Assembly: GCA_900549775.1 (NCBI GenBank)
Contig: URPR01000001.1
Span: forward strand, 50,094 to 114,093
Length of the DNA stretch: 64,000 nt
DNA from: an uncultured Oscillospiraceae bacterium
Lineage (GTDB): Bacteria; Bacillota; Clostridia; Oscillospirales; Acutalibacteraceae
Direction of reading: 5' to 3'
Position 1 is the first letter of the stretch. Each line of letters opens with the position of its first letter. The notes below the pieces were generated by a model. It saw nothing but the letters and a program-made list of their open reading frames with translations. It did not search any database and was not told where the DNA came from. This document shows, in pieces, positions 2,512 to 63,610 of this stretch. The translations under genes were made by a program, and so were the position numbers.

Positions 2512-2675
2512 TTAAGAACTTATGCATTTTAATATGTAAGTCAGTGAGCGCTGTGCGGTCTGGCGCTGCGAACCATGTTAGGCGGGGAACCGAGCAGCAT
2601 TAAGCAGATTTGCTGGAGGCGATGCAGTTAGTTTGCTGGCTTGCATATTAAAGTGGATAAGTTTGTGTTTATTCC
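2512..2675 (+). ncRNA. ffs: Signal recognition particle RNA (short scRNA-type) with its own promoter; ends approximate
   Basis: 2570-2610 reads GAACCATGTTAGGCGGGGAACCGAGCAGCATTAAGCAG. This is near-identical to B. subtilis scRNA domain IV (GAACCAUGUCAGGUCCGGAAGGAAGCAGCAUUAAG) and carries the GGAA tetraloop. Flanking arms pair (gcattttaatatgtaag / cttgcatattaaagtg). TTGATT-17-TATAAT sits at about 2475-2505. The conserved ffs-dnaX synteny is present. Confidence 0.65.
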
Positions 2676-4426: not shown

Positions 4427-4452
4427 TTGCAATTATTTTGCTGTAGATTAGT

Positions 4453-4541
4453 GCGGCGCGCGCAGCGCGGTTGCAAGCGAAGCTTGCAAAAATTGAAAAT
4501 TTTCTCGATGACTTTGTCATCGAACCGCGCTGCGCGCAACA
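4453..4541. repeat. GC-clamped multi-hairpin element A: 15-bp perfect GC-rich outer stem enclosing two perfect hairpins
   Basis: The outer stem is 4458-4472 (GCGCGCAGCGCGGTT) paired with 4523-4537 (AACCGCGCTGCGCGC). The inner hairpins are GCAAGC-gaa-GCTTGC (4473-4487) and CGATGAC-ttt-GTCATCG (4506-4522). A 10-nt palindrome GAAAATTTTC lies between them. Confidence 0.8.
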
Positions 4542-4584
4542 AGAACTAAATTTAAGCAATAACTTAAAATGGAGGAATAAATTG

Positions 4585-4935
4585 ATGAAAGCGAGACTAC
4601 CAAAGAACTACAATTCCGGAGGAATGGGAAATTTACAACAACTTGCGGCTAAGGCTCAGAAGATGCAAGAAGATATGCAAAAAGCTACTGAAGAGTTAGA
4701 ATCTAAAGAGTACACAATGACTTCGGGAGGAAACGCTGTAAAAGTTACCGCTAACGGTAAGATGGAACTCACGTCAGTTGAGCTTTCTCCTGAAATTGTA
4801 GACAAAGACGATATAGAAATGCTTCAGGATCTGATAATAGCAGCTTCAAATGCTGCTTTAAGGGCTGCGTCAGATGAGAAAAACAGCATGATGGAATCGC
4901 TCTCCAGTGGTATGAATATACCGGGATTATTTTGA
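4585..4935 (+). CDS. ybaB: Nucleoid-associated protein YbaB/EbfC
   Basis: MKARLPKNYNSGGMGNLQQLAAKAQKMQEDMQKATEEL... matches the YbaB family, 116 aa. SD GGAGGAATAA precedes ATG 4585. The ORF-track start at 4471 overlaps the structured spacer. Confidence 0.85.
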   Translation: MKARLPKNYNSGGMGNLQQLAAKAQKMQEDMQKATEELESKEYTMTSGGNAVKVTANGKMELTSVELSPEIVDKDDIEMLQDLIIAASNAALRAASDEKNSMMESLSSGMNIPGLF

Positions 4936-6916: not shown

Positions 6917-7264
6917 GGGGATGTAAAGGTTTCGACGGGGATTGTGAATTAAAGTAAGCGAGTAGAGATGCGAGCTCTCTTAAAAAACGCATTTTTAAAA
7001 TTAAACGACAACAATTTAGTTGCACAAGCTGCCTAATTAATGGCAGCCGTCTTGCTTAAGAGTACCGCGGCTTTTGCTAAGACGTTGATTAGCGGTGAAC
7101 GTGAATTAAGCTTTTCTCGACTTTTTTCATGCATTAGAGAATACTGAAGTATAGAGCTTGTCAGTTGGCGCTTTATGGAGGGAACGTTAAAGAATTGACT
7201 ACACTCGTAGAAAGCTTTATGGATCAATTTTCGGACAGGGGTTCAATTCCCCTCATCTCCACCA
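6917..7264 (+). ncRNA. ssrA: tmRNA (transfer-messenger RNA)
   Basis: 5' GGGGATGTAAAGGTTTCGACGGGGATTGTGAATT. An internal tag reading frame ends ...GACAACAATTTAGTTGCACAAGCTGCCTAA (tag ...NDNNLVAQAA*). 3' T-arm GGACAGGGGTTCAATTCCCCTCATCTCCACCA. Follows smpB as expected. Confidence 0.9.
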
Positions 7265-11540: not shown

Positions 11541-11691
11541 AAAACTCCTATAAAAAATTAGAATAAAATTAAATCAGATACAGATAATAATATTGCAAGC
11601 CGAGATCGCTTGCAAAGAAAAGAGAAACCATTGTATAAACAGATTGGCTCATTGGATCACAAACATTGAGTTGTTTGAGGAGGTGGACCTA

Positions 11692-33687: not shown

Positions 33688-34704
33688 GTGTCAGAAATAG
33701 AAAAAGAGAGAAAAAAAGAAAATATTTTAGTTTCGGTAATAGCGCCAATAAGAAATGAAGAAAATTATATTGAGAATTTTTTAAATTCGTTACTTTCTCA
33801 AGATTTTCCTAAAAAAAACCTTGAAGTAGTTTTAGTAGATGGTATGTCGGAAGATAGAACTTTGGATATTATTAATAGCTTTAAAGGAAAATTTACTCGG
33901 CTGAAAGTTTGTAGTAACCCTAATAAAACAGTACAGTATGCTCTGAACATAGGCGTAAGAAATGCGAGCGGTTTTTATATTGTTAGGATGGACGCACACT
34001 CTGAATATAGTAAAGATTACATATCCAGCTGTGTTGAATGCTTAAAAAACACAGGAGCTGATAATGTAGGTGGCCCGATGATAGCTAAAGGCAAAACGAA
34101 GGTCCAAAAAGTTATTGCGGCGGCTTACCACAGCAAGTTTGCACTGGGTGGTGGCAAGTTCCATGACGAACATTACGAAGGTTATGCAGACACTGTATAT
34201 TTGGGTGCGTTTAAGAAAGAAACATTAGAGAAACTTAACATGTATGACGAGCGCTTACCTAGAAGTGAAGACGATGATTTGAATTTTAGATTAATTGAAT
34301 CAGGCGGAAAAATATTCATAACACCAAAAATAAAGAGTGTATATTATCCCAGAAGCTCTTACAAAGAGCTATTTAGACAATATTATGAGTACGGGCTTTT
34401 CAAAGTGGCTGTTGTAAAAAAACACAGAAAACCTGCAAGAATATCTCATCTAGTGCCGGCAAGTTTCGTTTTATTTATGATTTTATTTGGGCTTTTATCC
34501 TTTTTCTCAAAACCAGCTATGTGCGTCTTTTGGAGCATTATGACATTGTATTTTATTTTAAATATATATTATTCCTTTAAAAATAAGTATTTAAGCTCTT
34601 TTTCTGACAAATTAAGACTAGTGTTTGTACATTTTATTTTACATATATCTTATGGGTTGGGATTTCTTGTGGGAATATTTAAGTTCTTGAACAAAAAATT
34701 GTAG
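33688..34704 (+). CDS. Family 2 glycosyltransferase with C-terminal TM helices
   Basis: VSVIAPIRNEENYIENFLNSLLSQ...VVLVDGMSEDRT is a GT-A fold with a DxD. The C-terminal hydrophobic tail has 2-3 TM segments. Confidence 0.75.
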   Translation: MSEIEKERKKENILVSVIAPIRNEENYIENFLNSLLSQDFPKKNLEVVLVDGMSEDRTLDIINSFKGKFTRLKVCSNPNKTVQYALNIGVRNASGFYIVRMDAHSEYSKDYISSCVECLKNTGADNVGGPMIAKGKTKVQKVIAAAYHSKFALGGGKFHDEHYEGYADTVYLGAFKKETLEKLNMYDERLPRSEDDDLNFRLIESGGKIFITPKIKSVYYPRSSYKELFRQYYEYGLFKVAVVKKHRKPARISHLVPASFVLFMILFGLLSFFSKPAMCVFWSIMTLYFILNIYYSFKNKYLSSFSDKLRLVFVHFILHISYGLGFLVGIFKFLNKKL

Positions 34705-34714
34705 GAGAAAAATA

Positions 34715-35602
34715 TTGAAACCGGAAAAGACAGTAAATTTTTCAAAAGATGAGTTACGAAACTTACAACTAAAAAATTTAGAGATGCTATTATATTTTAA
34801 AAATTTTTGTGATGAAAACAATTTAACTTTTTACTTTTGTGGGGGTTGCTGCATAGGTGCTGTGCGTCATGGTGGTTTTATCCCATGGGACGATGACGTA
34901 GATGTATTTATGAAAAGAGAAGACTATGAGAAACTGGGAGAGCTTTGGAACAAAAAAGCAGATACCGAAAAGTACTCATACTGTCGTTCCAGTGAGGCTA
35001 AAAACTACAGAAACCTTTTTGCAACTATAAATGACAATAACACAACGTTTATTAAAACTCATCAGGCGTCTCTTGATATAAACCATGGTCTGGTTTTGGA
35101 CATCTTACCTCTTGATGGTTACCCGAATTCAAAATTAAAACGAGCAAATCAAATTTTCTGGGCGCTGGTATATTCGCTTTTTTGTGCTGAAATGGTACCT
35201 GAGAATCATGGGAAGCTCGTAAAAGCAATAGGAAAAGTAGGACTAATGCTTTTTAGATCTTCAAAAACCAGGTATAAGATTTGGAGCTTTGCGGAGAAGA
35301 AAATGAAACAATATAAAATTTCAGATTGCGATAATATCACAGAGCTGTGTTCGGGGCCTTTTTATATGATGAAAAAGTACCCTAAGAGTGCATTTGATAA
35401 GCCGGTTTACAAAAACTTTGAGGGCTATGAGATGCCTTTGCCGTGCGACTACGATACATATTTGAAGACAGCTTTTGGAGAGTATTTAAAACTTCCGCCA
35501 AAAGAAAAATGGGTACCTCACCATGATGTGGTGTTCTGTGATTTAAACAACAGCTACAAAAAATATAAAGGAAAGTATTATTGCGTGGAGGGAGAAAAAT
35601 GA
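34715..35602 (+). CDS. licD: LicD-family phosphotransferase (candidate ribitol-phosphate or polyol-phosphate transferase)
   Basis: The LicD/fukutin nucleotidyltransferase-fold motif FYFCGGCCIGAVRHGGFIPWDDDVDV is present. It sits adjacent to tarI/tarJ. Confidence 0.7.
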   Translation: MKPEKTVNFSKDELRNLQLKNLEMLLYFKNFCDENNLTFYFCGGCCIGAVRHGGFIPWDDDVDVFMKREDYEKLGELWNKKADTEKYSYCRSSEAKNYRNLFATINDNNTTFIKTHQASLDINHGLVLDILPLDGYPNSKLKRANQIFWALVYSLFCAEMVPENHGKLVKAIGKVGLMLFRSSKTRYKIWSFAEKKMKQYKISDCDNITELCSGPFYMMKKYPKSAFDKPVYKNFEGYEMPLPCDYDTYLKTAFGEYLKLPPKEKWVPHHDVVFCDLNNSYKKYKGKYYCVEGEK

Positions 35603-36318
35603 TATTTGGGGCAATTTTAGCAGGCGGAGTAGGCTCAAGGATGAATATAGCGGACATGCCTAAACAGTTTTTACCGCTGGGGGAGAAGCCTATAATGGTG
35701 CATACTATTAAGAAATTTTTGTTAAACGATAAATTTGACAAAATCTATGTAGGCGTGCATGCGGACTGGCTTTTACATATGTCTGACTTGTTGAAAAAAT
35801 ATAATTTAGCCGATGAGAGGATTGAACTGGTAAGAGGCGGCAAAGACAGAACAGAAAGCATATTAAACATAATAAAGAAGATAGAGAATGATGAGTCGCT
35901 GAGCTTATCTGATAATGATATCATTGTCACGCATGATTCAGTGCGACCGTTTGTGACAAGCAGGATTATAGATGAAAATATAAATATGGCTTTAAAGTTT
36001 GGTGCTTGTGGTACGGTTGTTAGCTCAGTTGATACGATAATAACCTCAAAGCAAGGAGACACAATAGATTCAGTGCCGGAAAGAAGCACTATGTATCAAG
36101 GGCAAACTCCTCAAAGTTTTAACTTAAAATTAATTAAAAAGTTATACGATGAATTGACAAGTGATGAAAAAAATACTCTAACAGATGCCTGCAAAGTTTG
36201 TGTTTTGAAGAATGTACCGGTGAGGCTTGTAAGAGGGGAGTACTCAAACTTTAAAATCACCACTGTAACGGACTACAAAATCGCTCAAAGCATGGTAGGG
36301 AGGCTGGAGATTGATTAA
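35599..36318 (+). CDS. tarI: D-ribitol-5-phosphate cytidylyltransferase (IspD-like)
   Basis: MIFGAILAGGVGSRM...PKQFL is an IspD/TarI cytidylyltransferase N-terminus. Paired with an MDR dehydrogenase, as in tarIJ. Confidence 0.75.
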   Translation: MIFGAILAGGVGSRMNIADMPKQFLPLGEKPIMVHTIKKFLLNDKFDKIYVGVHADWLLHMSDLLKKYNLADERIELVRGGKDRTESILNIIKKIENDESLSLSDNDIIVTHDSVRPFVTSRIIDENINMALKFGACGTVVSSVDTIITSKQGDTIDSVPERSTMYQGQTPQSFNLKLIKKLYDELTSDEKNTLTDACKVCVLKNVPVRLVRGEYSNFKITTVTDYKIAQSMVGRLEID

Positions 36319-37324
36319 TCATATTTATCAGCTGGTAAGTCCGCACTTTTTTTCGGTGTCATACGCTGATGTAAACTTAAACGAAGGCGTTATAGTTAGG
36401 CCTGACTTTATGTCCATTTGCCATGCCGACCAGAGATATTACTTAGGAAAGCGAGATGCTAAAGTTTTAAGTAAAAAGCTACCAATGGCTCTCATACATG
36501 AATGCAGTGGCACTGTACTTAGAGATAATACAAAGACTTTCAGGGCCGGGCAGAAAGTAGTTTTGATACCAAATATACCAGGAAAAAAATGCGATGGCGT
36601 ATTTGAAAATTATTCATTAAATTCAAAATTTAGGTCAAGCTCGACAGATGGTTTTATGCAAGAATTTGTGAGTATGCCGGCAGATAGATTGGTAGCATTT
36701 GAAAATATAAAAATGGAAGTGGCTGCAATTTGTGAGTTTGTAAGTGTAGCATGCCACGCGGTGAATCGGTTTAAGCTTGCTACTGGCAAAAGAATCGGCA
36801 CAATTGGGATATGGGGCGATGGGAGCTTAGCTTATGTGTTTTCTTGTGTTTTAAAAGAAGAGTTGCCCGATTCTAAGGTGGTAGTTATAGGCAAAGATGT
36901 AAGAAAGCTTTCATATTTTACCTTTGTAGACAGGACTTTTCTGGTGGGCAGTTTGCCGAAAGACTTTTCAGTTGATAATGCTTTTGAATGTGCCGGTGGG
37001 GAAGGTAGTTTCTTTGCAATAGACGATATCATTCGTTTTATAAGACCGCAAGGTTATACTGTTTTGCTTGGCGTGAGCGAAAATAAAATATCTATAAATA
37101 CTAGAGACATTTTAGAAAAAGGGTTAACTTTCATAGGCTGTAGTAGATCTGGACGAGAAGACTTTGAAAAGGCTATAAATCTTATGGAAAAAAGTGATTT
37201 TCAAAGTAGATTGAGCGCTGTAATTTCGCAAGAACCAGAGGTTAAAGAAATTTCAGATATTCATAGAGTTTTCAAAAAAGATAGTTATAATTTATTTAAA
37301 ACTGTGTTTAAATGGGGTGTATAG
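36311..37324 (+). CDS. tarJ: Ribulose-5-phosphate reductase (zinc-type alcohol dehydrogenase)
   Basis: Medium-chain dehydrogenase fold (CHAD...HECSG Zn ligands, GxGxxG region). Immediately follows the tarI-like gene. Confidence 0.7.
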   Translation: MINHIYQLVSPHFFSVSYADVNLNEGVIVRPDFMSICHADQRYYLGKRDAKVLSKKLPMALIHECSGTVLRDNTKTFRAGQKVVLIPNIPGKKCDGVFENYSLNSKFRSSSTDGFMQEFVSMPADRLVAFENIKMEVAAICEFVSVACHAVNRFKLATGKRIGTIGIWGDGSLAYVFSCVLKEELPDSKVVVIGKDVRKLSYFTFVDRTFLVGSLPKDFSVDNAFECAGGEGSFFAIDDIIRFIRPQGYTVLLGVSENKISINTRDILEKGLTFIGCSRSGREDFEKAINLMEKSDFQSRLSAVISQEPEVKEISDIHRVFKKDSYNLFKTVFKWGV

Positions 37325-37330
37325 AGTTAG

Positions 37331-38332
37331 ATGGGTAAAAATACTAACAAAGTTCCTAGTATAAGCATCATTGTGCCGGTTTACAATGTTGAAAAATATT
37401 TAAAAAAATGTATAGATTCTATTTTAAATCAGTCATTTCAAAATTTTGAATTAATTTTAGTAGATGATGGATCTACCGATAGCTCTGGTGAGATTTGCGA
37501 TGAATATGCCTTGAAAGATCGCAGAGTTTTAGTTATACATAAAGAAAATGGAGGATTAAGCTCAGCAAGGAATGAAGGAATAAAGGCTTCGAGCGCGGAG
37601 TATGTTGGTTTCGTAGACAGCGATGATTATATCTCATTTAGCATGTATGAATTTTTGTATAATAATTTAATTGAGAACAATGCAGACATCTCAATTTGCG
37701 GTTTGTATAATTGCTATGAAAATAATGTTTACCCTCAATATAGCAAAAAAGAATTTTATTTACTTAACAATGAGCAGGCTTTAAAAATGGCTTTGGAAGG
37801 AAAAGTTTTTTCAGTTCATGCTGTAAATAAATTGTATAAAAGAAGTTTATTTGAAGATGTTCTATTTCCCATAAATAAATTATCTGAAGACGCATTCACC
37901 ATACCGAAACTTTTACTTAAAAGCAGGAGGGTGGTAGTAAACACTGTGCCGCTATATTTTTATGTGCACAGGAGCGGAACAATCACAACGTCTAGCTATA
38001 AGAAAAAGGACCTTGATGTAATAGAAGCTTATTTTCAAAATTTAAAATTAGTTGAAGAAAAATGTCCTAAACTAAAAAAAGAAGCAGAATTTAGACTTTT
38101 GTGGGCGTTTATGTGTGTGCTTGATAAAATGATAATGACAGATGATTTTAGTGATTTTGAAAAATATAAAAAAATTCTTAAGACACTCAAAAAAAATAGA
38201 ACAAAAATTTTATTAAACTCTTGTTTTTCACTTCACAGAAAAATTGGAATGGTTTGTTTATTCTTAAACGATAAATTGTATAAGGCATTAATACGGTACA
38301 ATCATAAAAGAAATATGTCTTTAGTAAATTAA
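37331..38332 (+). CDS. Family 2 glycosyltransferase
   Basis: ISIIVPVYNVEKYLKKCIDSILNQSF...LVDDGSTDSS...VDSDDY is a GT2 with a DxD. Confidence 0.8.
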   Translation: MGKNTNKVPSISIIVPVYNVEKYLKKCIDSILNQSFQNFELILVDDGSTDSSGEICDEYALKDRRVLVIHKENGGLSSARNEGIKASSAEYVGFVDSDDYISFSMYEFLYNNLIENNADISICGLYNCYENNVYPQYSKKEFYLLNNEQALKMALEGKVFSVHAVNKLYKRSLFEDVLFPINKLSEDAFTIPKLLLKSRRVVVNTVPLYFYVHRSGTITTSSYKKKDLDVIEAYFQNLKLVEEKCPKLKKEAEFRLLWAFMCVLDKMIMTDDFSDFEKYKKILKTLKKNRTKILLNSCFSLHRKIGMVCLFLNDKLYKALIRYNHKRNMSLVN

Positions 38333-38371
38333 TAGTAATTACATTTTACAAATAAAGGAACAAGATTACAT

Positions 38372-39787
38372 ATGAAAATAAAGAAAATATTTAGCGTAAA
38401 AACATATGAAAAGCTGCGGCTTGCTTATATGATACTTTTTCTGTTTGCAGTGCTTACAAGGGTACTGATGCCAATAGCTTTAAATGAGTCTCAACTTGTT
38501 AATAGTGCGGTTTTTGGCTTTGTAGCCTTTTTTGGACTACTTGTACTGGCTGTGGACTTTTTTGGTGAAAGGATAATGTTCACAGTAAAATATAAAGAAC
38601 TTTTGAGCTTATTTTTGGTTACAGTAGTAGTTTCGAGCATATTAAATGTAAAATATGGATTTTTGGGAAATATAAGAAACTTTGTATGGCTTTTAGTTTC
38701 GTTTTTCCTTTTGTACGCAATAAACTTGAAAAGAGAAAAAAAAGACGTATTTAAGGAAATAGGTATACTTTCAAATATTTTAATAGCGGTTTGGTTTTGT
38801 GTAGTGGCTTACTCGTTGTACATGTTTATATTTCAAATAGGTTTTTATGTTTATATTTATCCAGACTCATTTGCTAGACAAGGATTTATAGAAAATAGGC
38901 TTTTTGGAATATTTGAAGATCCTAACTTTGCTGCGATGGTATCGATAATTACGATGGTGTTTTCTATTTGGAATATAAAAGCTTTAAAAAACAAGATATT
39001 AAATATTTTTTACATAACGAATATAGTACTGCAATTTTGTTATATAGTTCTGTCAGGGTCTAGAACGGCACAGCTTGCAGCTAGTATTGGAGTATTTGTT
39101 TTTAGTTTTTTTGCTTTTAGATATAAGTTTTTTGATATAAAAAACAAAGCCTTCAAGCACCTCGCAATTGTGATTTCTAGCATTTTATTATCTGGTTTTG
39201 CTTTTTTTGCTGTAAATTTATCAAGTGAACTTCTTTCATATGTGCCACCGATGTTTAGCTTTTGCAGTGCTAAAGGAGAAGAAAGTACACAGCATAAAAT
39301 TAAGCCTGCTATGACTAAAAGGGAAGACATACAAGACACTTCAGACGTTTCAAGCTGTAGGTTTAAAATATGGAAAGCGGCTTTTGAATTGTTTAAATCT
39401 AAACCTATTTTAGGAACTTCTCCCAGAAACATGCGGCAATACGCTAAGACTGAATTTCCCAATAATTTTATAGGAATGAGAGGTTATGCGGTTCATAACG
39501 TGTACCTTGACATTTTAACGTCTACAGGTATTTTAGGAGCACTGGCTATTGTGCTGTTTTTTGTAAAGTATCTGGTTTATATTTTTAAGTATTTATTTTC
39601 TAAAAATGCAGTCAACAAAAGTAATTACCTTTATGTTACATTTTTCTTAACTATCATTGCAATGATAGCTGTATCAGCGGCGTTTTTATCTGAAATATTC
39701 TTTGTAAATACTGTTAGTGTGCTGTTTTTCTGGCTATCTATGGGAAAATGTGTTTACTTTATAGAAAATGAAGATAATGCAAGTTAG
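38372..39787 (+). CDS. O-antigen ligase/polymerase-like (Wzy family) integral membrane protein
   Basis: About 10-12 predicted TM helices. A large periplasmic loop between TM helices is present. A C-terminal TM cluster is present. 471 aa. Confidence 0.6.
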   Translation: MKIKKIFSVKTYEKLRLAYMILFLFAVLTRVLMPIALNESQLVNSAVFGFVAFFGLLVLAVDFFGERIMFTVKYKELLSLFLVTVVVSSILNVKYGFLGNIRNFVWLLVSFFLLYAINLKREKKDVFKEIGILSNILIAVWFCVVAYSLYMFIFQIGFYVYIYPDSFARQGFIENRLFGIFEDPNFAAMVSIITMVFSIWNIKALKNKILNIFYITNIVLQFCYIVLSGSRTAQLAASIGVFVFSFFAFRYKFFDIKNKAFKHLAIVISSILLSGFAFFAVNLSSELLSYVPPMFSFCSAKGEESTQHKIKPAMTKREDIQDTSDVSSCRFKIWKAAFELFKSKPILGTSPRNMRQYAKTEFPNNFIGMRGYAVHNVYLDILTSTGILGALAIVLFFVKYLVYIFKYLFSKNAVNKSNYLYVTFFLTIIAMIAVSAAFLSEIFFVNTVSVLFFWLSMGKCVYFIENEDNAS

Positions 39788-40802
39788 GGGTGAGAAATTT
39801 TTGTTTTATAAGAAAATAAGCATAATTGTTCCAGTATACAACAAAGAAAAAAATATAGAAGCTTGTGTAAATAGCATTTTGTCTCAAATGTATGAAAACA
39901 TTGAGGTAGTTTTGGTAAATGACGGTTCGACTGATAACTCGCTGCCCATATGTGAAAATTTTGCTTTGAAAGATGACAGGGTGAAGGTTATAACCAAAGC
40001 AAACGGAGGTGTCTCTTCAGCGAGAAACGTTGGGCTCCAAAACACTACGGGTGAGTACGTGGAATTTGTTGATGCTGATGATGTTATAGATGAAAACATG
40101 TGCTCAGAAATGGCTAAGGCAATGTATGAAAGCGATGCTGACATCGTTGTTTGCGGCTATAAAAGGCAAAACAAGTCTTTAAATCAAGTGAAAAAATGTG
40201 TAGGGGCATTTTTAAAAGGTGAAAGCGGGCTGGAAAGAGGTTTTAAATTTTTATATGAAAACGCCTTGTTTAATGCTCCTTGGAATAAACTTTACAAAAG
40301 AGAAAAAATAAACTTTAACTTCTCACAAGATTTTTCCATAGGGGAAGATTTACTTTTTAATTTAGATTACTTTAAAAATTGCGATAAAATTCGGCTAATA
40401 AAGGCTTGCCCTTATAATTATAACGCAAATATAGATAATTCTTTAAGTTTGAAATATGATGAAAAAATTTTAGAGCAAGAACTGTATTTGAACGACATGG
40501 TGAAATCATTTTGCAAAGAAAAATTTGGTGATGATCATCTAGATGGCAGTTTAGATAGAGTATTTTTAAAAGAAATTTATTATATTTTAAAAAAAGTTGT
40601 GTTTTTAGATGAATGTGACAAAAAAGAAAAGATTAATAAAATAAAAAAAATCATAAATTTACCACAAGTTTTAGCGATCGACAAGAAACTAAAAGTACAT
40701 GACAAGCAATTGAAAATAGTTTTTACACTTTTAAAACATAACTGTGCAGTAGGCATTTACACATTTTTTGTTTTGAAGAAAATTTTATTTAAGACAATAT
40801 AG
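39768..40802 (+). CDS. Family 2 glycosyltransferase
   Basis: ISIIVPVYNKEKNIEACVNSILSQMYENIEVVLVNDGSTDNS...VDADDV. The likely real start is TTG ~39801 after GGGGTGAG. The ORF-track start overlaps the upstream gene. Confidence 0.8.
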   Translation: MKIMQVRGEKFLFYKKISIIVPVYNKEKNIEACVNSILSQMYENIEVVLVNDGSTDNSLPICENFALKDDRVKVITKANGGVSSARNVGLQNTTGEYVEFVDADDVIDENMCSEMAKAMYESDADIVVCGYKRQNKSLNQVKKCVGAFLKGESGLERGFKFLYENALFNAPWNKLYKREKINFNFSQDFSIGEDLLFNLDYFKNCDKIRLIKACPYNYNANIDNSLSLKYDEKILEQELYLNDMVKSFCKEKFGDDHLDGSLDRVFLKEIYYILKKVVFLDECDKKEKINKIKKIINLPQVLAIDKKLKVHDKQLKIVFTLLKHNCAVGIYTFFVLKKILFKTI

Positions 40803-40842
40803 CTTGTAAAAGTTAAAAATATAAAGGTTGGTAAAAAACGCA

Positions 40843-42384
40843 ATGAGAACGAGAAATTCGATTGTAAATAGCTCTTTTGCTTTAATATCGTATGCTATTT
40901 TATTTTTAGGCCCGTTTTTTGTGAGCCCTTTTTTAGAATCCATTTTAGGTGGAGAATATCTTGGTATACAAAAAACTTTGGTCGACACAGTTGCTCTTTT
41001 GAGCATAGTGGAATTGGGAATCAGCTATGGAATAATATACAAACTATATGAACCTATTGCTAAGAAGGACTATGAAAAAGTTGCGATATTGCTGAACTTT
41101 TATAAGAATGCTTTTAAAGCGGTTGCAGGTGTAGTGTTTTTATTGGGACTATGGTTGACTTTTATAATACCTAAAATTTTTGCGAAAAACCAAGGACCAA
41201 AGAGCGTTTCAGAAGTTTTTTTAAGTTTTGCGTTCTTCTTGTATCTTTTAGACACTTTATTTACTTATTTGTTTGGCCACAAAAGGGCAATGCTCATAGC
41301 AGATCAAAAGAACTACATTGTTACTTTATGTAGGACAGTTTGTCAACTTTTGATGTTTGTATTCCAGGTTATGGTTATTTATATTTTTAAATCGTTTATA
41401 TGGTATGTTGTGGTAAAGGTTTTGTTTACACTTATTGAAAGCTTGCTCATAAACAGACAATACAAAAAACTGTATTCGAATATTATAAATTTGAAAATAA
41501 AAGGAAAGCTAGCTAAATCTGAAAAGAAAGATTTATTTAAGAATTTGAATGCGTTATTTTACCACAAAATAGGCTATCAAAGTTTAATTTCAGGTTCAAC
41601 TATAATAATGACAAATAAACTAGGTAAAATCGTTACAGGCATTTATTACCCATACACGCTCATAACAAGTGGTCTTATTAACGTTATTACTCAAGTGTTC
41701 AATTCGATACTATCGAGTTTCGGTAATTACTTAGCCAGCAATACCAAAGAAAAAGTATATGCACTTTATAAGAAATTGTACTTGTTAAATCATGTGGTGT
41801 TTTCGTTTTTTACAGTTTCGTTTTTTTGCTTGGTAAAGCCATTTGTGGAGCTTTGGATGGGACAAGATTTTATATTTCCTCTAAAGACTATAATACTTAT
41901 CACTTTAAATTTTTATTTGTTGGGAATGAGACAATCGGTGACGATGGTGAAGTCCAGTGTGGGCTTGTATAGGCCAGATAGATACTTTGCCATAGCTGAA
42001 ACTATAATAAATTTAAGTTTATCTTGGATTTTGGTTGGGCATTACGGTTTAAATGGAATTTTAATGGCAAATTTAATAAGTACAATTTTAATTCCTTTTT
42101 GGGTACAGCCTTATGTTGTTTACGTGAATGTTTTTGAAAAGTCTGTGTTAAATTATTATAAAAAGTTTGTATTGTACTTGTTTTTAACGTTAGGCCAAGT
42201 GATAATATCGTATTTTTTATGCGGGATTTTTAGATTTAACAACATAATTTTGCAGTTGACTGTAAATGCGGCGTGCTGTTTAGTTGTACCGAATGTGATT
42301 AATTTATTATTTTTTTATCATACAGACGAATTGCAGTACTTATTGAGAGTTTTAAAAGGAATATTAAAGAAGGGGAAAAAGTAA
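40843..42384 (+). CDS. wzx: Polysaccharide flippase (Wzx, MOP superfamily)
   Basis: About 14 TM helices and a polysaccharide biosynthesis protein architecture. About 510 aa. Confidence 0.7.
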   Translation: MRTRNSIVNSSFALISYAILFLGPFFVSPFLESILGGEYLGIQKTLVDTVALLSIVELGISYGIIYKLYEPIAKKDYEKVAILLNFYKNAFKAVAGVVFLLGLWLTFIIPKIFAKNQGPKSVSEVFLSFAFFLYLLDTLFTYLFGHKRAMLIADQKNYIVTLCRTVCQLLMFVFQVMVIYIFKSFIWYVVVKVLFTLIESLLINRQYKKLYSNIINLKIKGKLAKSEKKDLFKNLNALFYHKIGYQSLISGSTIIMTNKLGKIVTGIYYPYTLITSGLINVITQVFNSILSSFGNYLASNTKEKVYALYKKLYLLNHVVFSFFTVSFFCLVKPFVELWMGQDFIFPLKTIILITLNFYLLGMRQSVTMVKSSVGLYRPDRYFAIAETIINLSLSWILVGHYGLNGILMANLISTILIPFWVQPYVVYVNVFEKSVLNYYKKFVLYLFLTLGQVIISYFLCGIFRFNNIILQLTVNAACCLVVPNVINLLFFYHTDELQYLLRVLKGILKKGKK

Positions 42385-43758
42385 TTGAAACGGGAAATGG
42401 TTATTAGAAAAAATGACGTTTTAGAAGCAGAAGTGTTATCGTTAAGTTCGGAAGGCAACGGCATTTGTAAGATAAAAGATTTTGCTGTCTTTGTACCAAA
42501 TGCCATCCCGGGAGATAAGTTGCTTATTAAAATATTAAAGGTAAAAAAGAATTACGCATTTTCTAAAATAGAAAAAATTTTAGAACCGTCTTCAAATAGA
42601 ATAAAGCCTGACTGTGATTCCTTTCCTAAATGTGGCGGTTGTACTTTCAGAAACTTGAAATATGAATCGGAATTGCTATTTAAAGAAAGGAAAGTAAAGG
42701 ATTCACTTGAAAAGATAGGAGGGATTAAAGATTTAAAAATAGAGAAAATTATTCCTTCTGAGAAAATTGATGGTTATAGGAACAAAGCACAATTACCAAT
42801 AAGCATTGATAAAAGTGGCAATTACATAGTAGGCTTTTATGCAAAACATACTCACAGGGTAGTTGACTGTAAAGACTGTAAATTGCAACCCGAAATTTTT
42901 AGAAAATCAATAGAAGCATTTTTGGCTTGGGCAAACAAAACAAAACCTAGTGTATATGACGAAAGGCTACACAGTGGACTTTTGAGGCATTTATATTTAA
43001 GAATAGCTGAAAAAACTGATGAAGTTATGTTTTCGCTGGTTATAAATGGAGATGACATAGAAGATTCGGAATTATTAATAAACACAGTTAGAAGAACTGT
43101 GCCGCAAGTGAAAAGTATAATTTTAAATATAAACAAAGCTGATACGAATGTTGTTTTGGGTAAAGAAAATAAGGTAATGTGGGGGAAAGGATGCCTGACA
43201 GATGAATTGTGTGGACTCAAGTTTAATATTTCTCCGAACTCGTTTTATCAAGTAAACAGAAGCCAAACGGAAAAATTGTACAGTTTAGTGAAAGAGTATG
43301 CAGATTTAAGCGGAAGTGAGACTGTTTTAGATTTGTATTGTGGGACGGGAACTATAGGACTTACAATGGCGAAAAAGTGCAAAAAATTGATAGGGGTAGA
43401 AATTGTTGAACAGGCCATAGAAAATGCGAAAAATAATGCAAAAATGAATAATATAAAAAATGCAAGCTTTGTCTGTATGGACGCAAAACTTGCTTTTGAA
43501 GAGTTAAAAAAACGAGGAAACAAAATAGATGTTGTGGTGATTGATCCTCCCAGAAAAGGCTGCGATGAAAACGTGGTAAACTTAATTTCTCATTTTAAAG
43601 TGCCTAAAGTTATTTATGTTTCGTGTGATCCTGCGACGTTAGCTAGAGATTTAAAACTTTTTGCAGAAAGATCTTATAAAATAAAAAATATAGGATCTGT
43701 TGATATGTTCTCAAGGACTGCTCATGTCGAAACAGTTGTTTTACTTTCAAAACTGTAA
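42385..43758 (+). CDS. rlmD: 23S rRNA (uracil-C5)-methyltransferase, RlmD/RumA family (TRAM, Fe-S Cys cluster, SAM MTase)
   Basis: N-terminal TRAM domain. Cys cluster CDSFPKCGGC...C. MTase motif LDLYCGTGTIG. C-terminal nucleophile region. Confidence 0.75.
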   Translation: MKREMVIRKNDVLEAEVLSLSSEGNGICKIKDFAVFVPNAIPGDKLLIKILKVKKNYAFSKIEKILEPSSNRIKPDCDSFPKCGGCTFRNLKYESELLFKERKVKDSLEKIGGIKDLKIEKIIPSEKIDGYRNKAQLPISIDKSGNYIVGFYAKHTHRVVDCKDCKLQPEIFRKSIEAFLAWANKTKPSVYDERLHSGLLRHLYLRIAEKTDEVMFSLVINGDDIEDSELLINTVRRTVPQVKSIILNINKADTNVVLGKENKVMWGKGCLTDELCGLKFNISPNSFYQVNRSQTEKLYSLVKEYADLSGSETVLDLYCGTGTIGLTMAKKCKKLIGVEIVEQAIENAKNNAKMNNIKNASFVCMDAKLAFEELKKRGNKIDVVVIDPPRKGCDENVVNLISHFKVPKVIYVSCDPATLARDLKLFAERSYKIKNIGSVDMFSRTAHVETVVLLSKL

Positions 43759-43787
43759 ATATTGATTTATAGGGAATGGAGAAATAT

Positions 43788-44807
43788 ATGACAAAAGTGA
43801 GCTTGCAAAAAAGAGAAAGAGTGGCACTTTATGATAATATAAAATTTATTATGATTACACTCATGGTTGTGGGGCATTTTGCAGATGTTTTTACAGAAAG
43901 TTCAGGTGTTTGCCAGAGCATATATCTCTTTATTTATGCTTTTCACATGCCAATGATGATATTTGTTTCAGGTTTATTTTACACGAATAGACAAAACATA
44001 CCAAAAATAATGTTTTATATTTGTAGTGGTTTCGCTTTAAAAGTATCACTTTCAATTGTAGATTTAATTTGTAGTCGCAGCAGTACTAGTTTTTCTTTGC
44101 TGACTGATGCAGGGATCCCTTGGTTTATGTTTGTATTAGCGAGCTATCAAATCTTAATGTATATTTTTAGAAATATAAATAAAGTGTTCTTACTTATTTT
44201 TTGTATAATATTGGCCTGTTTTGTTGGATATGATACGACTGTTGGAGATTATTTATATCTTTCTAGAATGATTGTCTTTTTCCCTTTTTATTTATTGGGT
44301 ACGATGCTTTCTCCCCAAAAGATCGTGTCTTTTCTAAATAAATATTCAAAAAGATTTATTGGTATTGCAATAATTATTATAACAATGTGGTTTTTCTTAT
44401 GCTTTTATAAAAGAGATGAATTTTATATTTACCGACACCTGTTTACTGGGAGAAATAGCTTTTCTAGTGAAATTCTTGAATATGGCCCACTGGCACGCTT
44501 GTTATGTTACTGTATTACATTTTTGACTGGTGCAAGTTTATTGACTTTAACGTCAAAAGTTCGAATTTCGTTTATTTCTTCGCTAGGGTTACATACATTG
44601 AATGTCTACTATTGGCACTGGATTATTTATTGCTTGGCGGATAAATTTTTTAATATTAGCAATATTTTTAGTCTGGGAAAAACAGGGGGAGTGGTTTTTT
44701 TGCTTATCGCAATATTGTTAAGTGTTATATTATCTAGTGTAAGAGTGTTTGATTATCCATTAAATTTAATAAGGCAACAGTGTTTCAAAGCAAATGACAA
44801 CACGTAA
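43788..44807 (+). CDS. Acyltransferase family 3 membrane protein (O-acyltransferase)
   Basis: About 10 TM helices with conserved ITLMVVGHF / FHMPMMIFVSG motifs. Start at ATG 43788 (SD GGAGAAAT). Confidence 0.65.
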   Translation: MTKVSLQKRERVALYDNIKFIMITLMVVGHFADVFTESSGVCQSIYLFIYAFHMPMMIFVSGLFYTNRQNIPKIMFYICSGFALKVSLSIVDLICSRSSTSFSLLTDAGIPWFMFVLASYQILMYIFRNINKVFLLIFCIILACFVGYDTTVGDYLYLSRMIVFFPFYLLGTMLSPQKIVSFLNKYSKRFIGIAIIIITMWFFLCFYKRDEFYIYRHLFTGRNSFSSEILEYGPLARLLCYCITFLTGASLLTLTSKVRISFISSLGLHTLNVYYWHWIIYCLADKFFNISNIFSLGKTGGVVFLLIAILLSVILSSVRVFDYPLNLIRQQCFKANDNT

Positions 44808-47163: not shown

Positions 47164-47470
47164 ATAATGATAATTTTTGGAGTTAGGAATTTTATAAAGT
47201 TTCCCCGCTTAACCGTAATGTGTACAAAATAACCTGCCTACTAAATAAACAGGTGGGTGCCAGCCTATAATTTTCTCGCTCCCTTCATTCAGCTAAAGCT
47301 GAGAGGTCTGCAATCCAATAACAGAGCGAAGCTCCCGATAAAAAAGTTGTAGGGTTAAATAACACAGTCCGCGAATTAAGCAGGGAAATATAATTTCTAA
47401 ATATAATTATATCATAAAATTTCAAAATGTAAATAGTATTTATAAAAAATATATGTGTTTAATGATTTTA

Positions 47471-47809: not shown

Positions 47810-47858
47810 TTTATTTTGATTTTAGTCAATAGTATAGTATTTTGTTAGTGCCTATATT

Positions 47859-47966
47859 GGGGCGGCAGCCCCACAGGATATGATAAATTTTTTATCATAC
47901 CCTGTGTAACGGTCCATTTAATGGACCGTTTGATGGTTTATAAAATAAACCATCTGGCTGCCGCCA
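47859..47966. repeat. GC-clamped multi-hairpin element B: 10-bp GC outer stem enclosing three hairpins
   Basis: The outer stem is GGCGGCAGCC (47861-47870) paired with GGCTGCCGCC (47956-47965). Inner hairpin 1 is a 15-bp stem with one mismatch and a ttt loop. Inner hairpin 2 is ACGGTCCAT-tta-ATGGACCGT. Inner hairpin 3 is GATGGTTTAT-aaa-ATAAACCATC. Confidence 0.8.
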
Positions 47967-48050
47967 ACAAATTACGCACTAACTTTTATTTTAGTGTTCT
48001 AATATATTTTACTATTTCATATCAATTAGAAAAAGGGAGGGACAAGATTT

Positions 48051-52387: not shown

Positions 52388-52969
52388 ATGGGTTCGAAAA
52401 AAAGACATATTATATTGGCAGCATTAGTGCTGTCTTTAGCAACAGCTGTATATTTGAATTGGCAATTCTCTTCAAACAAAGAGTTAACTTCGACTGATAG
52501 CATTATGTCGACCAAAGAGCTTGGTCAAGCACAATTTGTGAATAATTCTCAGAAATGTGAGGCTAAACCTGAAAACTCTGAAGCAGACAAGGATAATGCA
52601 GAAGAAAGCAAAGAGTCATCAGATTACTTTAATAAAGCTAAAACAGAACGCCAAAAGGCTAGAGACGAGGCTACAGAGTCTATTAAAGAGATTTTGGAAA
52701 ATGCTAAGTCATCTGAAGAAACAAAAGCAGAAGCCGTAAAAAAAGCTACGGAGATTGCTCAGAAAATAGAACAAGAATCTAACATAGAGAACCTCGTAAG
52801 AGCTAAAGGGTTTAGTGAATGTTTGGCTTTTCTGCAGAATGATGAGTGCAGCTTAGTGGTAACAGGTGCTGAATTGAATGAAAGTTCAGCAATATCTATA
52901 AAAGATATAGTTTGCGGTCAAGCAGGCATATCGAGTGACAAAATTAAAATAATAGAAGCTAAGAGCTGA
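52388..52969 (+). CDS. spoIIIAH: Stage III sporulation protein AH
   Basis: N-terminal TM segment, an acidic/lysine-rich linker, and a C-terminal YscJ-like domain. 193 aa. Confidence 0.75.
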   Translation: MGSKKRHIILAALVLSLATAVYLNWQFSSNKELTSTDSIMSTKELGQAQFVNNSQKCEAKPENSEADKDNAEESKESSDYFNKAKTERQKARDEATESIKEILENAKSSEETKAEAVKKATEIAQKIEQESNIENLVRAKGFSECLAFLQNDECSLVVTGAELNESSAISIKDIVCGQAGISSDKIKIIEAKS

Positions 52970-52978
52970 TTTTTTAGA

Positions 52979-53094
52979 TTGCGCGCCAGCTCAATTTGTT
53001 TTTCGAGAAAAAACAAATTATTATCTTTTCCGTATTGAAAAGATAATCAATAACCGAGCGAAGCGTTCGCTCGGTTATTGGCGCTGGCGCGCGG
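52979..53094. repeat. GC-clamped multi-hairpin element C: 10-bp GC outer stem enclosing three hairpins
   Basis: The outer stem is GCGCGCCAGC (52981-52990) paired with GCTGGCGCGC (53083-53092). The inner hairpins are AATTTGTTTTT/AAAAACAAATT (11 bp), ATTATCTTTTC/GAAAAGATAAT (11 bp) and AATAACCGAGCGA/TCGCTCGGTTATT (13 bp, containing GCGAAGC). Confidence 0.8.
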
Positions 53095-53101
53095 TTCAGC
53101 T

Positions 53102-61381: not shown

Positions 61382-61688
61382 AGTTGCAGTTATAGGAGAA
61401 AAAGAAAGTGTAATTGGGTTTGCGGCACTTGGGTTGGACGTTTTTGAAATTGATGATACTACTGGAGCTGAAAAGAAAATTAAAGAACTATTAAAGCTTG
61501 AGTATGGGATTATTTATTTAACGGAAAAAGTTGCACAAGACCTAGACGAACGATTAAAATACTATCAGGTTAATTATAATACTGCAATTGTTCCTATTCC
61601 CGGTAGCGACAAAAGCACTAAAATAGGGTTAGAAAATGTTAGGAAATCTATAGAAAGAGCTGTAGGAAGTAATATTTTAGAGATATAA
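61374..61688 (+). CDS. ntpG: V-type ATPase subunit F
   Basis: MHKVAVIGEKESVIGFAALGLDVF... is 104 aa. Confidence 0.8.
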   Translation: MHKVAVIGEKESVIGFAALGLDVFEIDDTTGAEKKIKELLKLEYGIIYLTEKVAQDLDERLKYYQVNYNTAIVPIPGSDKSTKIGLENVRKSIERAVGSNILEI

Positions 61689-61710
61689 AGATGTTTTTAC
61701 TTACTATTTA

Positions 61711-61813
61711 AGGGCGCAGCCCTTCAAAAATCAAATATTTTGATTTTTGAAATTTCGTTGATACCAACGAAATTCGCGGAGCTATAAAATAGCTCCGCGG
61801 GGGCTGCGCCCGG
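61711..61813. repeat. GC-clamped multi-hairpin element D: 11-bp GC outer stem enclosing three hairpins (inside the ntp operon)
   Basis: The outer stem is GGGCGCAGCCC (61712-61722) paired with GGGCTGCGCCC (61801-61811). The inner hairpins are TTCAAAAATCAAA-tat-TTTGATTTTTGAA (13 bp), AATTTCGTTG-atac-CAACGAAATT (10 bp) and CGCGGAGCTAT-aaa-ATAGCTCCGCG (11 bp). Confidence 0.85.
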
Positions 61814-61840
61814 TAAGTGTACTTAACTGAGGTGAAAATT

Positions 61841-63610
61841 ATGAAATCTGGCGTAATAAAGAAGGTAGCAGGACCGCTGGTTATAGCATCGGATATGAAA
61901 CAAGCCAACATGTTTGACGTTGTTAAGGTAGGTAACGAAAAGTTAATTGGTGAAATTATTGAGATGCATTCGGGTGACGCATCCGTACAAGTATATGAAG
62001 AAACGACAGGGCTTGGGCCTGGTGCGCCTGTAGTATCTACAAATGAGCCTTTAAGCGTAGAACTGGGACCGGGACTTATTGGCAATATATTTGATGGCAT
62101 CCAGCGTCCACTTAGCGAAATAAAAAAGGTATCTGGCAACAACCTAAAAAGAGGAATAGAAGTTTTACCTTTGAACAGAGATAAAAAGTGGAATTTTAAT
62201 TCAGAAGTCAAAGTAGGCGATGAAGTTGTTTCTGGGGATATTATCGGGACAGTTTTGGAAACACCGATAGTAAAACATAAAATAATGGTTCCGATTGGTA
62301 TAAATGGTACAATAAAAAAGGTTTACGATGGGGAATTCGCAGTCGATGATGTAGTAGCTGTTATTCAAAGTGAAAACGGTGAAGAAAAGGAAATTAAATT
62401 ATTTCAAAAATGGCCTGTGAGGGTTCCAAGACCATATAAACAGAAACTTATGCCAAATGAGCCTTTGATTACGGGTCAGCGCGTTATAGATACTCTTTTT
62501 CCTATGGCGAAGGGGGGAGTCGCTGCGGTACCGGGACCATTTGGTAGCGGGAAAACTGTAGTGCAGCATCAGCTAGCCAAGTGGGCCGATGCAGATATAA
62601 TAGTATATATAGGTTGCGGTGAGCGTGGAAATGAAATGACTGATGTTCTAAATGAGTTTCCAGAGCTTATAGACCCCAAAACAGGGCGCTCTCTGATGGA
62701 ACGAACAGTCTTAATAGCAAACACTTCAGACATGCCGGTGGCGGCAAGAGAAGCATCTATATATACTGGTATTACTATAGCTGAGTATTTTAGAGATATG
62801 GGATACTCTGTAGCTTTGATGGCAGATTCCACATCCCGCTGGGCAGAAGCTTTAAGGGAAATGTCTGGTCGGCTACAAGAAATGCCGGGCGAAGAAGGGT
62901 ATCCGGCATATTTAGGTAGCAGGTTAGCTCAGTTTTACGAACGTGCCGGCAGAGTAATTGCAAAAGGCAGCGATAAAAGAGAAGGAACTCTTAGCGTTAT
63001 AGGTGCTGTTTCGCCGCCTGGTGGAGATATTTCTGAACCGGTGTCTCAAGCGACTTTAAGAATAGTAAAAGTTTTTTGGGGGCTTGATTCAAACCTTGCA
63101 TATAAGCGGCATTTTCCGGCTATAAACTGGCTAAACAGCTATTCCCTATATATAGACAGTGTAGGAAAATGGTTCTGTGAGCATGTTAATGAAAATTGGC
63201 TGAACCTTAGGCATGAATGTGTAAAAATTCTTGGAGAAGAAGCAAACTTAGAGGAAATAGTCAAGCTTGTTGGAATGGATGCATTATCTGCGTCTGATAG
63301 ACTAAAACTTGAAATAGCTAGATCTATACGTGAAGATTTCTTACACCAAAATGCTTTTAATGAAGTAGATACGTATACTTCATTAAATAAGCAGTTTCTC
63401 ATGCTGAATTTAATTTTTAAATTTCAAGAAACTGCAAACGAACTAATTACGAATGGTGTTGAAGTGGAAGAAATTTTAAAATTTAAAAGTCGTGAAAAAA
63501 TAGGACGATTTAAATATGTGGAAAAAGATGACCTTGAAAAAGAATATGAGGAAATACTCAAAGAAATGGCAAAAGAAGCTGAAAACGCTGTGAGAGAGGA
63601 GGAAGAATAA
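61841..63610 (+). CDS. ntpA: V-type ATPase catalytic subunit A
   Basis: P-loop GPFGSGKT and the non-homologous region typical of A subunits. Start at ATG 61841 (SD GAGGTGA). Confidence 0.9.

Follow-up and report, generated by a model that had tools for sequence, protein, structure and literature searches.

Roles as mRNA stabilisers or terminators have been proposed for the REP, BIME and REPIN palindromes of proteobacteria, which are thought to move as folded single strands that leave no target duplications. Integron attC sites, 57–141 nt long and located at gene 3′ ends, are also read as folded single strands; their structure is conserved and their sequence is not, and long sites can branch. 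In the dRS3-flanked RS blocks of Neisseria and the BIME mosaics of E. coli, a short conserved inverted repeat brackets variable intergenic blocks, and the intergenic RNase III sites of phage T7 are structured elements between genes of one transcript that confer differential mRNA stability. Bacterial miniature inverted-repeat transposable elements (MITEs), including Correia, RUP, BOX, bcr1 and ERIC, are non-autonomous, intergenic and co-transcribed sequences of about 100–150 bp with terminal inverted repeats and stable predicted folds (PMC2229807, PMC3184786). Mitochondrial GC clusters, double-hairpin elements and repetitive hairpin-forming elements are G+C-rich and apparently mobile insertions that interrupt AT-rich intergenic DNA in compact genomes (PMC4478555, PMC2800124), and SRPS stem-loops of Clostridium operons set operon stoichiometry (PMC8219983). 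Here we analyse four compact elements, A to D, in which a G+C-rich stem encloses three hairpins, found in a 64,000-nt stretch of an uncultured Oscillospiraceae bacterium (GenBank assembly GCA_900549775.1, contig URPR01000001.1, positions 50,094–114,093; hereafter the window).

A descriptor scan identified exactly four clamped three-hairpin elements in the window: A at 4458–4537, B at 47861–47965, C at 52981–53092 and D at 61712–61811. In each, a perfect G+C closing stem of 10–15 bp, the clamp, surrounds exactly three essentially perfect hairpins with stems of 6–16 bp, loops of 3–6 nt and linkers of 0–2 nt, and a four-way junction is predicted to be able to form on either strand. A second stem of 5–8 bp lies outside the clamp in all four, separated from it by a small asymmetric internal loop. 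Every element is intergenic, and the neighbouring genes in the window have housekeeping roles (dnaX, ybaB and recR; a DUF1292 gene and the spoIIIA operon; a DUF4364 gene; the V-ATPase operon). We read the elements as a lineage-restricted family of small non-autonomous palindromic repeats, selfish or neutral and with possible secondary effects on transcripts, an interpretation to which we give about an even chance of being correct. The positions and gene contexts of the four elements given in the initial annotation agree with our reading of the sequence, the descriptor scan and the identified neighbours. Its multi-hairpin fold stands as well, with the count of two or three inner hairpins corrected to three in each element; and the elements are indeed richer in G+C (42–52%) than their surroundings, although the window average is 34.5% and not the supposed background of about 30%.

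The elements exceed chance expectation by a wide margin. With a descriptor that requires a perfect GC-rich outer stem and an interior mostly covered by perfect hairpins, the window returned A–D and nothing else, and 50 Markov-1 randomisations scanned at relaxed settings produced 2 hits in total (about 0.04 per window); within the window, nested palindromes therefore do not occur at the chance frequency that would have undermined the original proposal. A sliding 110-nt minimum free energy scan ranked A–D as the four most stable windows (z −6.8 to −8.9), ahead of a coding segment (z −4.2) and the signal recognition particle (SRP) RNA (z −3.8). The comparison of RNA and DNA folds with shuffled controls, suggested at the outset, gave the same answer: dinucleotide-shuffle z scores for DNA and RNA were −8.0 and −7.9 for A, −12.0 and −13.5 for B, −11.4 and −11.5 for C, and −14.4 and −12.6 for D, with 0 of 200 shuffles as good. 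Identical or near-identical copies of A–D occur at the same sites in more than 20 independent gut-metagenome assemblies produced by different pipelines, window proteins match many human-gut metagenome contigs exactly, and the window itself is matched at 100% identity by two contigs of GCA_900772065.1. The elements occupy the same sites in all conspecific assemblies and are therefore natural sequences and not assembly artefacts. Taken singly, short perfect hairpins show only a modest excess in the window (69 compared with 33–57 in shuffles), as would be expected if the elements were chance palindromes of AT-rich intergenic DNA, but the frequency of clamped triple hairpins, z scores down to −14 and recurrence across assemblies have already refuted an origin by chance or artefact, which we consider to have virtually no probability.

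The four elements were delimited from the sequence, hairpin or inverted-repeat searches and predicted folds. Element A, including its outer tier, spans 4448–4549 in the spacer that separates the stop codon of dnaX (4426) from the start of ybaB (4585). Its outer stem is TTAGT/ACTAA (4448–4452/4545–4549), its clamp GCGCGCAGCGCGG/CCGCGCTGCGCGC (4458–4470/4525–4537), and its hairpins lie at about 4471–4489, 4490–4503 and 4505–4523, as seen in a perfect-hairpin search and in both DNA and RNA folds. Element B, found by the same search and covering 47844–47983 with its outer tier, lies between the divergent genes for DUF1292 (minus strand) and spoIIIAA (plus strand). Its outer stem GTTAGTGC/GCACTAAC (47844–47851/47976–47983) and clamp GGCGGCAGCC/GGCTGCCGCC (47861–47870/47956–47965) enclose hairpins at 47872–47906, 47908–47930 and 47932–47954, the first of which contains an A·C mismatch on the plus strand, the sole flaw noted in the window hairpins. 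Element C, also delimited by perfect-hairpin search, reaches with its outer tier (52964–53101) from stop codon to stop codon of the convergent genes spoIIIAH and DUF4364. Its outer stem AGCTGA/TCAGCT occupies 52964–52969, with the spoIIIAH stop codon inside, and 53096–53101; its clamp GCGCGCCAGC/GCTGGCGCGC occupies 52981–52990 and 53083–53092, and its hairpins 52993–53019, 53020–53047 and 53048–53080. Element D, recovered by inverted-repeat search, extends with its outer tier over 61699–61818, after the V-ATPase F-subunit gene, whose stop codon is at 61688, and ahead of the A-subunit gene, which begins with the ATG at 61842. Inside the outer stem ACTTAC/GTAAGT (61699–61704/61813–61818) and the clamp arms GGGCGCAGCCC (61712–61722) and GGGCTGCGCCC (61801–61811) are three perfect hairpins: a 13-bp stem with loop TAT (61723–61751), a 10-bp stem with loop ATAC (61752–61774) and an 11-bp stem with loop AAA (61775–61799), the last being 12 bp in strains L002, L004 and L007.

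Several other features of these sites were recorded. The heptamer TTAGTGC occurs just outside the clamps on the left side of A and on both sides of B (4448–4454, 47845–47851 and 47976–47982). It is not enriched across the window (11 occurrences compared with 8.8 expected), and its proximity to the clamps is only suggestive; the similar TTGGTGC and CTAGTGC lie outside one element of another genome, the first element of L022 described below. Element B is located about 470 nt upstream of the 6S RNA gene (47198–47389, minus strand), which has a near-consensus extended −10 promoter at 47433–47406 on the minus strand. Between A and B, the window contains a cluster for a cell-envelope polysaccharide or teichoic-acid-like polymer (33688–44807) with three GT2 glycosyltransferases, LicD, an IspD-like cytidylyltransferase, a zinc-type dehydrogenase and a Wzy_C ligase/polymerase, and this cluster is free of elements.

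Comparison with relatives reveals both gain and loss at these sites. The nearest GTDB representative (L011) is an uncultured Oscillospiraceae metagenome-assembled genome (MAG) with 94.7% nucleotide identity, and the next relatives are Acutalibacteraceae/Eubacteriales MAGs with a V-ATPase subunit I 55–63% identical. The ntpF–ntpA spacer measures 154 nt with D in the window, 13–56 nt in 13 syntenic relatives, and 71 and 214 nt in two others that lack such an element; set against the short outgroup spacers, the 154-nt spacer therefore identifies D as a gain. In L011 the same spacer is 68 nt long; the left clamp arm GGGCGCAGCC is still there, as is the outer stem ACTTAC/GTAAGT, but the hairpins and right arm are gone, and this site is a deletion remnant and not a virgin target. 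In strain L093, a conspecific with 97.6% identity, a deletion between two CGCGC microhomologies has removed the inner 67 nt of A and left the outer half of the clamp and the outer tier. The protein collection contained no relatives of intermediate divergence (DUF4364 identity between 98% and 68%), and the polarity of the A and D indels consequently rests on outgroups. Elements B and C are present in L011. At the C site, the relative L030 (flanking proteins 67% identical) has an ordinary bidirectional terminator, and the spoIIIAH–DUF4364 spacer of a rumen lineage at about the same distance as L030 (L095–L097) holds a different three-hairpin element with an AT-richer closing stem. Orthologous spacers had been proposed as a source of evidence for insertions with target-site duplications, and the comparison yielded gains relative to outgroups and no such duplications.

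Within the species, the loops are the most variable part of the elements, and uncompensated mismatches segregate at helix ends. Among 11 strains compared (the window and 10 further loci), B has nine haplotypes, in which the triloop of hairpin 1 is TTT or AAA on different backgrounds, a recurrent flip; the 67 nt adjoining B toward spoIIIAA are almost invariant. Element C has five haplotypes with hypervariable loops, and its hairpin 3 differs between the window and L011 by one clean C–G to T–A double change. Some strains carry a 4-nt CTAT insertion directly after the 3′ arm of the D clamp.

The family is patchily distributed. In about 1.5 Mb of loci from 79 other species, the scans recovered only B and C of L011 and the elements of one Acutalibacteraceae MAG, L022, and about 75 other related loci had none. 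Density ranges from 4 in 64 kb here and 2 in 22 kb of L022 to 1 in 14 kb of the rumen relative L095. The two L022 elements lie 18 kb apart, share the identical clamp GCCGCGAGGC and are inverted relative to each other; their hairpins 1 and 3 are clearly homologous and differ by double, pair-preserving changes, and the two copies are thus genuine paralogues. A metagenome scan for GCCGCGAGGC N70-100 GCCTCGCGGC gave 120 hits, nearly all on GC-rich contigs and none with the family architecture; one contig, L190 (Ga0335398_10039280), contains at 4724–4829 a perfect palindrome with 51-bp arms flanked by the searched clamp, which is probably unrelated or an assembly fold-back. In pairwise local alignment no pair of window elements scored above shuffles, and weak or marginal similarity was confined to B, C and D with L022. 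Nor did we find a source for the inner hairpin sequences elsewhere in the same loci, where the longest shared k-mers were at null level except for one hairpin repeated 110 nt upstream in the contig L297.

Elements of the same design also occur on prophage-like contigs. A scan of viral contigs with the D-type clamp returned mostly GC-rich chance hits and two true cases: L322 (12.9 kb, GC 0.33, from the same rumen sample as L095), with five elements, and L297 (11.7 kb, GC 0.63), with at least three complete elements and clamp-less three-hairpin clusters. Both contigs are structural modules of phages with PBSX-type terminases, and the elements sit in tight spacers between co-directional late genes. 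Proteins of L322 and L297 are only 27–54% identical, yet both phages carry elements at the terL|portal junction and beside the baseplate-hub gene. One complete L297 element has the clamp GGGCGCAGCCC, identical to that of D, and the same 11-mer is present in L492, a phage with 78–86% nucleotide identity to L297 and orthologous elements. Searches for further carriers were largely negative: viral scans with B- and C-type clamps gave 57 hits, all GC-rich chance matches, a viral scan with the L022 clamp gave no true element, a search for phage relatives with a single portal protein returned only the query itself, and 80 related phage loci (terL 50–69% identical, 1.1 Mb) gave 1 hit. The terL–portal gap is −61 to +81 nt in 18 related phages, 143 nt in L322 and about 230–260 nt in L297, with elements filling the gap in the carriers. 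The longer gaps in carriers and the near absence of elements from the 80 relatives argue for independent gains in particular phages, and the pattern points to the host lineage rather than the phage lineage.

Phage copies further illustrate how elements vary and break. Two clamp-less or half-clamped clusters in L297, at about 2640–2710 (three hairpins) and 11600–11661 (two or three hairpins), are each preceded by GGCCGCAGGCC and share the stem CGGCGGCGC with complementary loops TCC and GGA; the cluster at about 2640–2710 is absent from L492. The hub protein of L494 is 99% identical to that of L297, and the two sequences diverge completely immediately after the left clamp arm GGGCGCAGCCCCTTT (about 6540–6560 in L494; L493 8786–8800 for the L297 side); a mosaic junction therefore lies inside an element, in parallel with the D remnant of L011. 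At another element (L494 4573–4648, L297 4688–4763), both arms of the clamp CCCGGCGGCGCCGG have changed from GGCGCC to GGTGCC, creating two adjacent G·T wobbles that are not compensated; a NarI-type site may have been lost here, or the arms, behaving as direct repeats, may have undergone conversion. Four tandem copies of a unit of about 52 nt (CCTTATGCTTTGCATCCGGCAGGATGAAGGCGGGGCGAGGAAAACCGAG; 6963–7250) lie between the phrog_16951 and major head protein genes of L297, and its AT-rich homologue L322 has a three-hairpin element at the corresponding position. Palindromy makes the elements fragile, as seen in the deletions of A in L093 and D in L011 and in the L494 breakpoint.

To describe how the family evolves, we assembled 19 elements, namely A–D and 15 from L011, L022, L095, L322, L297 and L492. 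All 19 are intergenic and combine exactly three perfect hairpins and 0–3-nt linkers with a closing stem that is usually G+C-rich (AT-richer in some L322 and L095 copies), and G·T accounts for 4 of the 791 predicted pairs. The clamp is a G+C run with a consensus of roughly SSCGCAGSS, interrupted by one A on its 5′ side and one T on its 3′ side; where a single A:T pair is present, the A is in the 5′ arm in all eight independent cases. The clamp is conserved while the interior turns over. In a structure-aware count of the hub-adjacent orthologues of L297 and L492, all 11 pairs of the clamp GGGCGCAGCCC are unchanged; of the 22 inner pairs, 100% of which remain paired, 11 are the same in both phages and the other 11 differ at both positions, with no one-sided change (changed pairs 0/11 in the clamp versus 11/22 inside; one-sided Fisher p about 0.004). 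As first proposed, pairing is thus preserved during sequence turnover, in the L011, L022 and L297/L492 comparisons alike. The proposal of selection on secondary structure holds only in part: pairing is conserved, but selection at the RNA level is not demonstrated by pairs that change on both sides and contain so few G·T. These two features instead point to complementarity of the Watson–Crick type at the DNA level, or to templated correction, and not to ordinary RNA-level compensation. Template switching during replication has been documented to generate perfect stems, compensatory changes of several bases and inverted loops (PMC8794818), and the perfect stems, double changes and loop flips seen here appear to match that pattern.

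These observations suggest the following course. Insertion or duplication would have brought elements into intergenic spacers of certain Oscillospirales chromosomes and into prophage-like DNA. The clamp is the only conserved sequence, and the inner hairpins are constrained only to remain perfect Watson–Crick palindromes of about 6–16 bp with short loops. Templated correction of each hairpin at the DNA level, by template switching or conversion between arms, would keep the stems perfect and would also produce loop flips and all-or-none double changes, and the same palindromy leads to slippage deletions and rearrangement breakpoints. Once inserted, elements would be transcribed with their neighbours, and their stable four-way junctions would probably block exonucleases or transcription, acting as a barrier or processing site in the RNA; C may replace a conventional terminator. 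The homologous inverted copies in L022, the gains and the restriction to certain hosts and prophage-like contigs fit a duplicative, insertion-like origin, and they tell against the initial argument that unrelated interiors speak against copies of a mobile element.

Several results weigh against a family of selfish or neutral repeats. No clean empty site was found, as both ‘empty’ sites (D in L011 and A in L093) are deletion remnants that keep outer tiers, and no consistent direct repeat flanks the clamps or outer tiers as a target-site duplication would. The regions examined contain no candidate enzyme for insertion. The window elements share no inner sequence in any pairwise comparison, and copying of a master element is not shown for this genome; copy counts, moreover, come from the 64-kb window and partial loci or contigs rather than a whole genome. 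Three further observations could equally mean a function of benefit to host or phage: B and C persist in the two sister lineages, a genus 67% identical carries an element of this design at its own spoIIIAH|DUF4364 junction, and the clamp is strictly conserved between diverged phages.

Function is the central claim of an alternative in which the elements are selected as RNA, the clamped junction serving as a processing, stabilising or termination signal comparable to the T7 RNase III sites, and the clamp being read by an RNase or RNA-binding protein. Its targets would be the relative mRNA levels of ntpF and ntpA/B, of dnaX and ybaB–recR, and of phage late genes. All copies are indeed intergenic, within transcription units or at 3′ ends, and C occupies exactly the position of the classical terminator in L030 and of the other three-hairpin element in the L095 lineage. 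The recurrence of elements at terL|portal and beside the hub gene in two distant phages fits this alternative, as do clamp sequences and helix lengths that are kept while stems turn over with full compensation, and Clostridium stem-loops provide a precedent for setting operon stoichiometry (PMC8219983). In GC-rich phage copies the sense-strand triloops are mostly G-N-A (the hub-adjacent pair and a second orthologous pair), with an exception at terL|portal in L297, where one of three conforms. However, RNA-level selection would not usually leave so few G·U pairs and no one-sided pair change, either strand forms an equally perfect structure, L022 carries copies in both orientations, and no U tract follows. 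Most related bacteria and 80 related phages do without the elements; within the species, polymorphism equals or exceeds that of the flanking spacer, uncompensated mismatches segregate, and at least one conspecific strain lacks the inner 67 nt of A. We regard selection as RNA as rather unlikely.

Alternatively, the elements may be single-stranded DNA or cruciform sites of a dedicated structure-specific enzyme that mediates insertion, excision or exchange of hairpin cassettes, by analogy with attC/IntI, REP/RAYT and the ends of IS200–IS605. A conserved architecture with free sequence and a conserved, polar clamp motif fit this reading, as does strictly Watson–Crick pairing, which is expected of folded DNA. 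The 11-nt clamp GGGCGCAGCCC is common to an AT-rich chromosome and GC-rich phages, elements occur in chromosomes and prophage-like contigs of the same or similar samples, and in two unrelated sequences (L011 and L494) the breakpoint coincides exactly with the inner edge of the left clamp arm. Such breakpoints would equally result from replication slippage at a hairpin base, however, and none of the copies examined has a recombinase, HUH or transposase gene nearby; attC cores, extrahelical bases and a GTAG/CGTC tag are absent, and clamps differ among copies of one genome. A site for such a dedicated enzyme is quite improbable. We give slightly more credence, while still judging it unlikely, to an undescribed transaction in which single-stranded DNA folded into the SSCGCAGSS arm and three hairpins would be read by an enzyme that places the element between genes, both in chromosomes and in resident prophages, and that may also swap or rebuild the hairpin cassette; this would explain the invariant three hairpins, the Watson–Crick stems, clamp conservation across GC regimes and breakpoints at the inner clamp edge. 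The elements might instead have no common descent, each having been built on the spot in an AT-rich spacer by successive template switches. Unrelated inner sequences among the window copies and the nested outer tier of every element, which suggests stepwise growth, agree with this idea, and template switching can make a perfect stem in one step (PMC8794818). It is nonetheless very unlikely given the constant number of hairpins, a G+C clamp of the same polarity and motif, identical clamps in unrelated genomes and paralogous copies in L022 and L297. Presence and absence, moreover, take the form of large block deletions (67 nt in A and about 90 nt in D) and no stepwise intermediates were seen, and most equally AT-rich relatives have no elements.

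We compared the elements with the defining features of described classes. An Rfam scan of the whole window at gathering thresholds detected only SRP RNA (2542–2640, plus strand), transfer-messenger RNA (tmRNA; 6917–7264, plus strand) and 6S RNA, with no family on A–D, and permissive scans of A–D and of L322, L297, L492, L022 and L095 gave nothing near threshold on any element. In the window ARAGORN reported the tmRNA and no tRNA match to the elements, and a tRNA or tRNA-like gene is rejected on this result and on stems of 6–16 bp with 3–6-nt loops. No T run follows the clamps of A–D on the sense strand, which agrees with the early statement that these are not ordinary intrinsic terminators; a terminator scan flags only inner hairpins of C and D, on the minus strand. 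The GTAG or CGTC head of REP and REPIN sequences is absent at both ends of A–D, and the 64-kb window and its flanks contain no RAYT (Y1 transposase) gene. Near-identical copies of the REP kind are not seen among the four window elements, which are unrelated inside, although L022 and L297 do hold related copies. Of the features of MITEs, terminal inverted repeats are present as the perfect 10–15-bp clamps, which alone are not diagnostic; as to insertion polymorphism with clean empty sites, the elements are gains relative to outgroups and the two ‘empty’ alleles seen are deletions that keep parts of the element. An integron attC site is rejected for the perfect stems without bulged bases, the absence of RYYYAAC...GTTRRRY ends, and housekeeping or phage structural neighbours in place of a cassette array or intI. 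The elements have no unpaired conserved core as in a ribozyme, no reverse transcriptase nearby as for a retron or diversity-generating retroelement, and no CRISPR array; an inverton is rejected because the interior is itself palindromic. Transposase and integrase genes are missing from the window. A literature search found no description of clamped three-hairpin elements, within incomplete literature coverage. Because the tested defining feature of each known family fails (tag, target duplication, attC cores, U tract and Rfam match), we file the elements as their own variant of structured intergenic palindromic repeat, apparently undescribed as a family, in agreement with the initial suggestion of a class of structured intergenic repeats in which architecture is conserved and a clamp motif is shared, and to which no known RNA family corresponds.

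If real, the family would add a new architecture to bacterial intergenic repeats, a perfect and immobile four-way junction whose clamp is conserved and whose hairpins are free-running, carried by abundant uncultured Oscillospirales of the human gut and rumen and by their prophages. It would offer a natural test case for the upkeep of perfect stems by template switching versus selection, as half of the inner pairs have been replaced between two phages with no intermediate. The elements would mark hotspots of deletion and phage mosaicism inside essential operons, and would need to be masked or modelled in RNA-motif discovery, terminator prediction and assembly of MAGs. Should a dedicated enzyme or a defined RNA role exist, such compact, sequence-programmable junction elements could become useful parts.

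Each of the known systems shares some of these properties. The mosaics of Neisseria and E. coli follow the same bracketing logic, but their variable blocks are not sets of perfect hairpins and have no invariant three-hairpin architecture, and dRS3 is a phage or recombinase target, a link not shown for the elements here. Integron attC sites have R″/R′ cores (RYYYAAC/GTTRRRY), essential extrahelical bases and imperfect stems and form arrays beside intI, none of which is found here. The T7 RNase III sites and Clostridium SRPS stem-loops are structured sequences placed between genes of one transcript, in phage and host as here, but each consists of one imperfect hairpin that contains internal loops and G·U pairs, lacks two-fold symmetry in DNA and is not polymorphic for insertion and deletion. 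Mitochondrial GC clusters resemble the elements in multi-hairpin folds and patchy distribution; they differ in belonging to organelle genomes, in having one or two hairpins and in forming sequence families, and an enclosing clamp with three hairpins is not described for them. MITEs are similar in size, non-autonomy, terminal inverted repeats, predicted folds and intergenic placement, but their copies are alike in sequence, usually have target-site duplications and derive from insertion sequences, and none of the three is seen for the window copies. REP, BIME and REPIN sequences are, like the elements, short, G+C-rich, lineage-specific extragenic palindromes located between genes in or after operons (PMC3733652). 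By contrast, REPs are single imperfect hairpins of 20–40 nt with a GTAG/CGTC tag, high similarity within a genome and a RAYT gene alongside, whereas the elements here combine a clamp with three perfect hairpins in a four-way junction, have unrelated interiors in the window and show neither a tag nor a RAYT gene in view. By analogy, the closest counterparts in working would be REP/BIME sequences, bacterial MITEs, and mitochondrial GC clusters and double-hairpin elements, with attC sites comparable in their conserved structure and free sequence.

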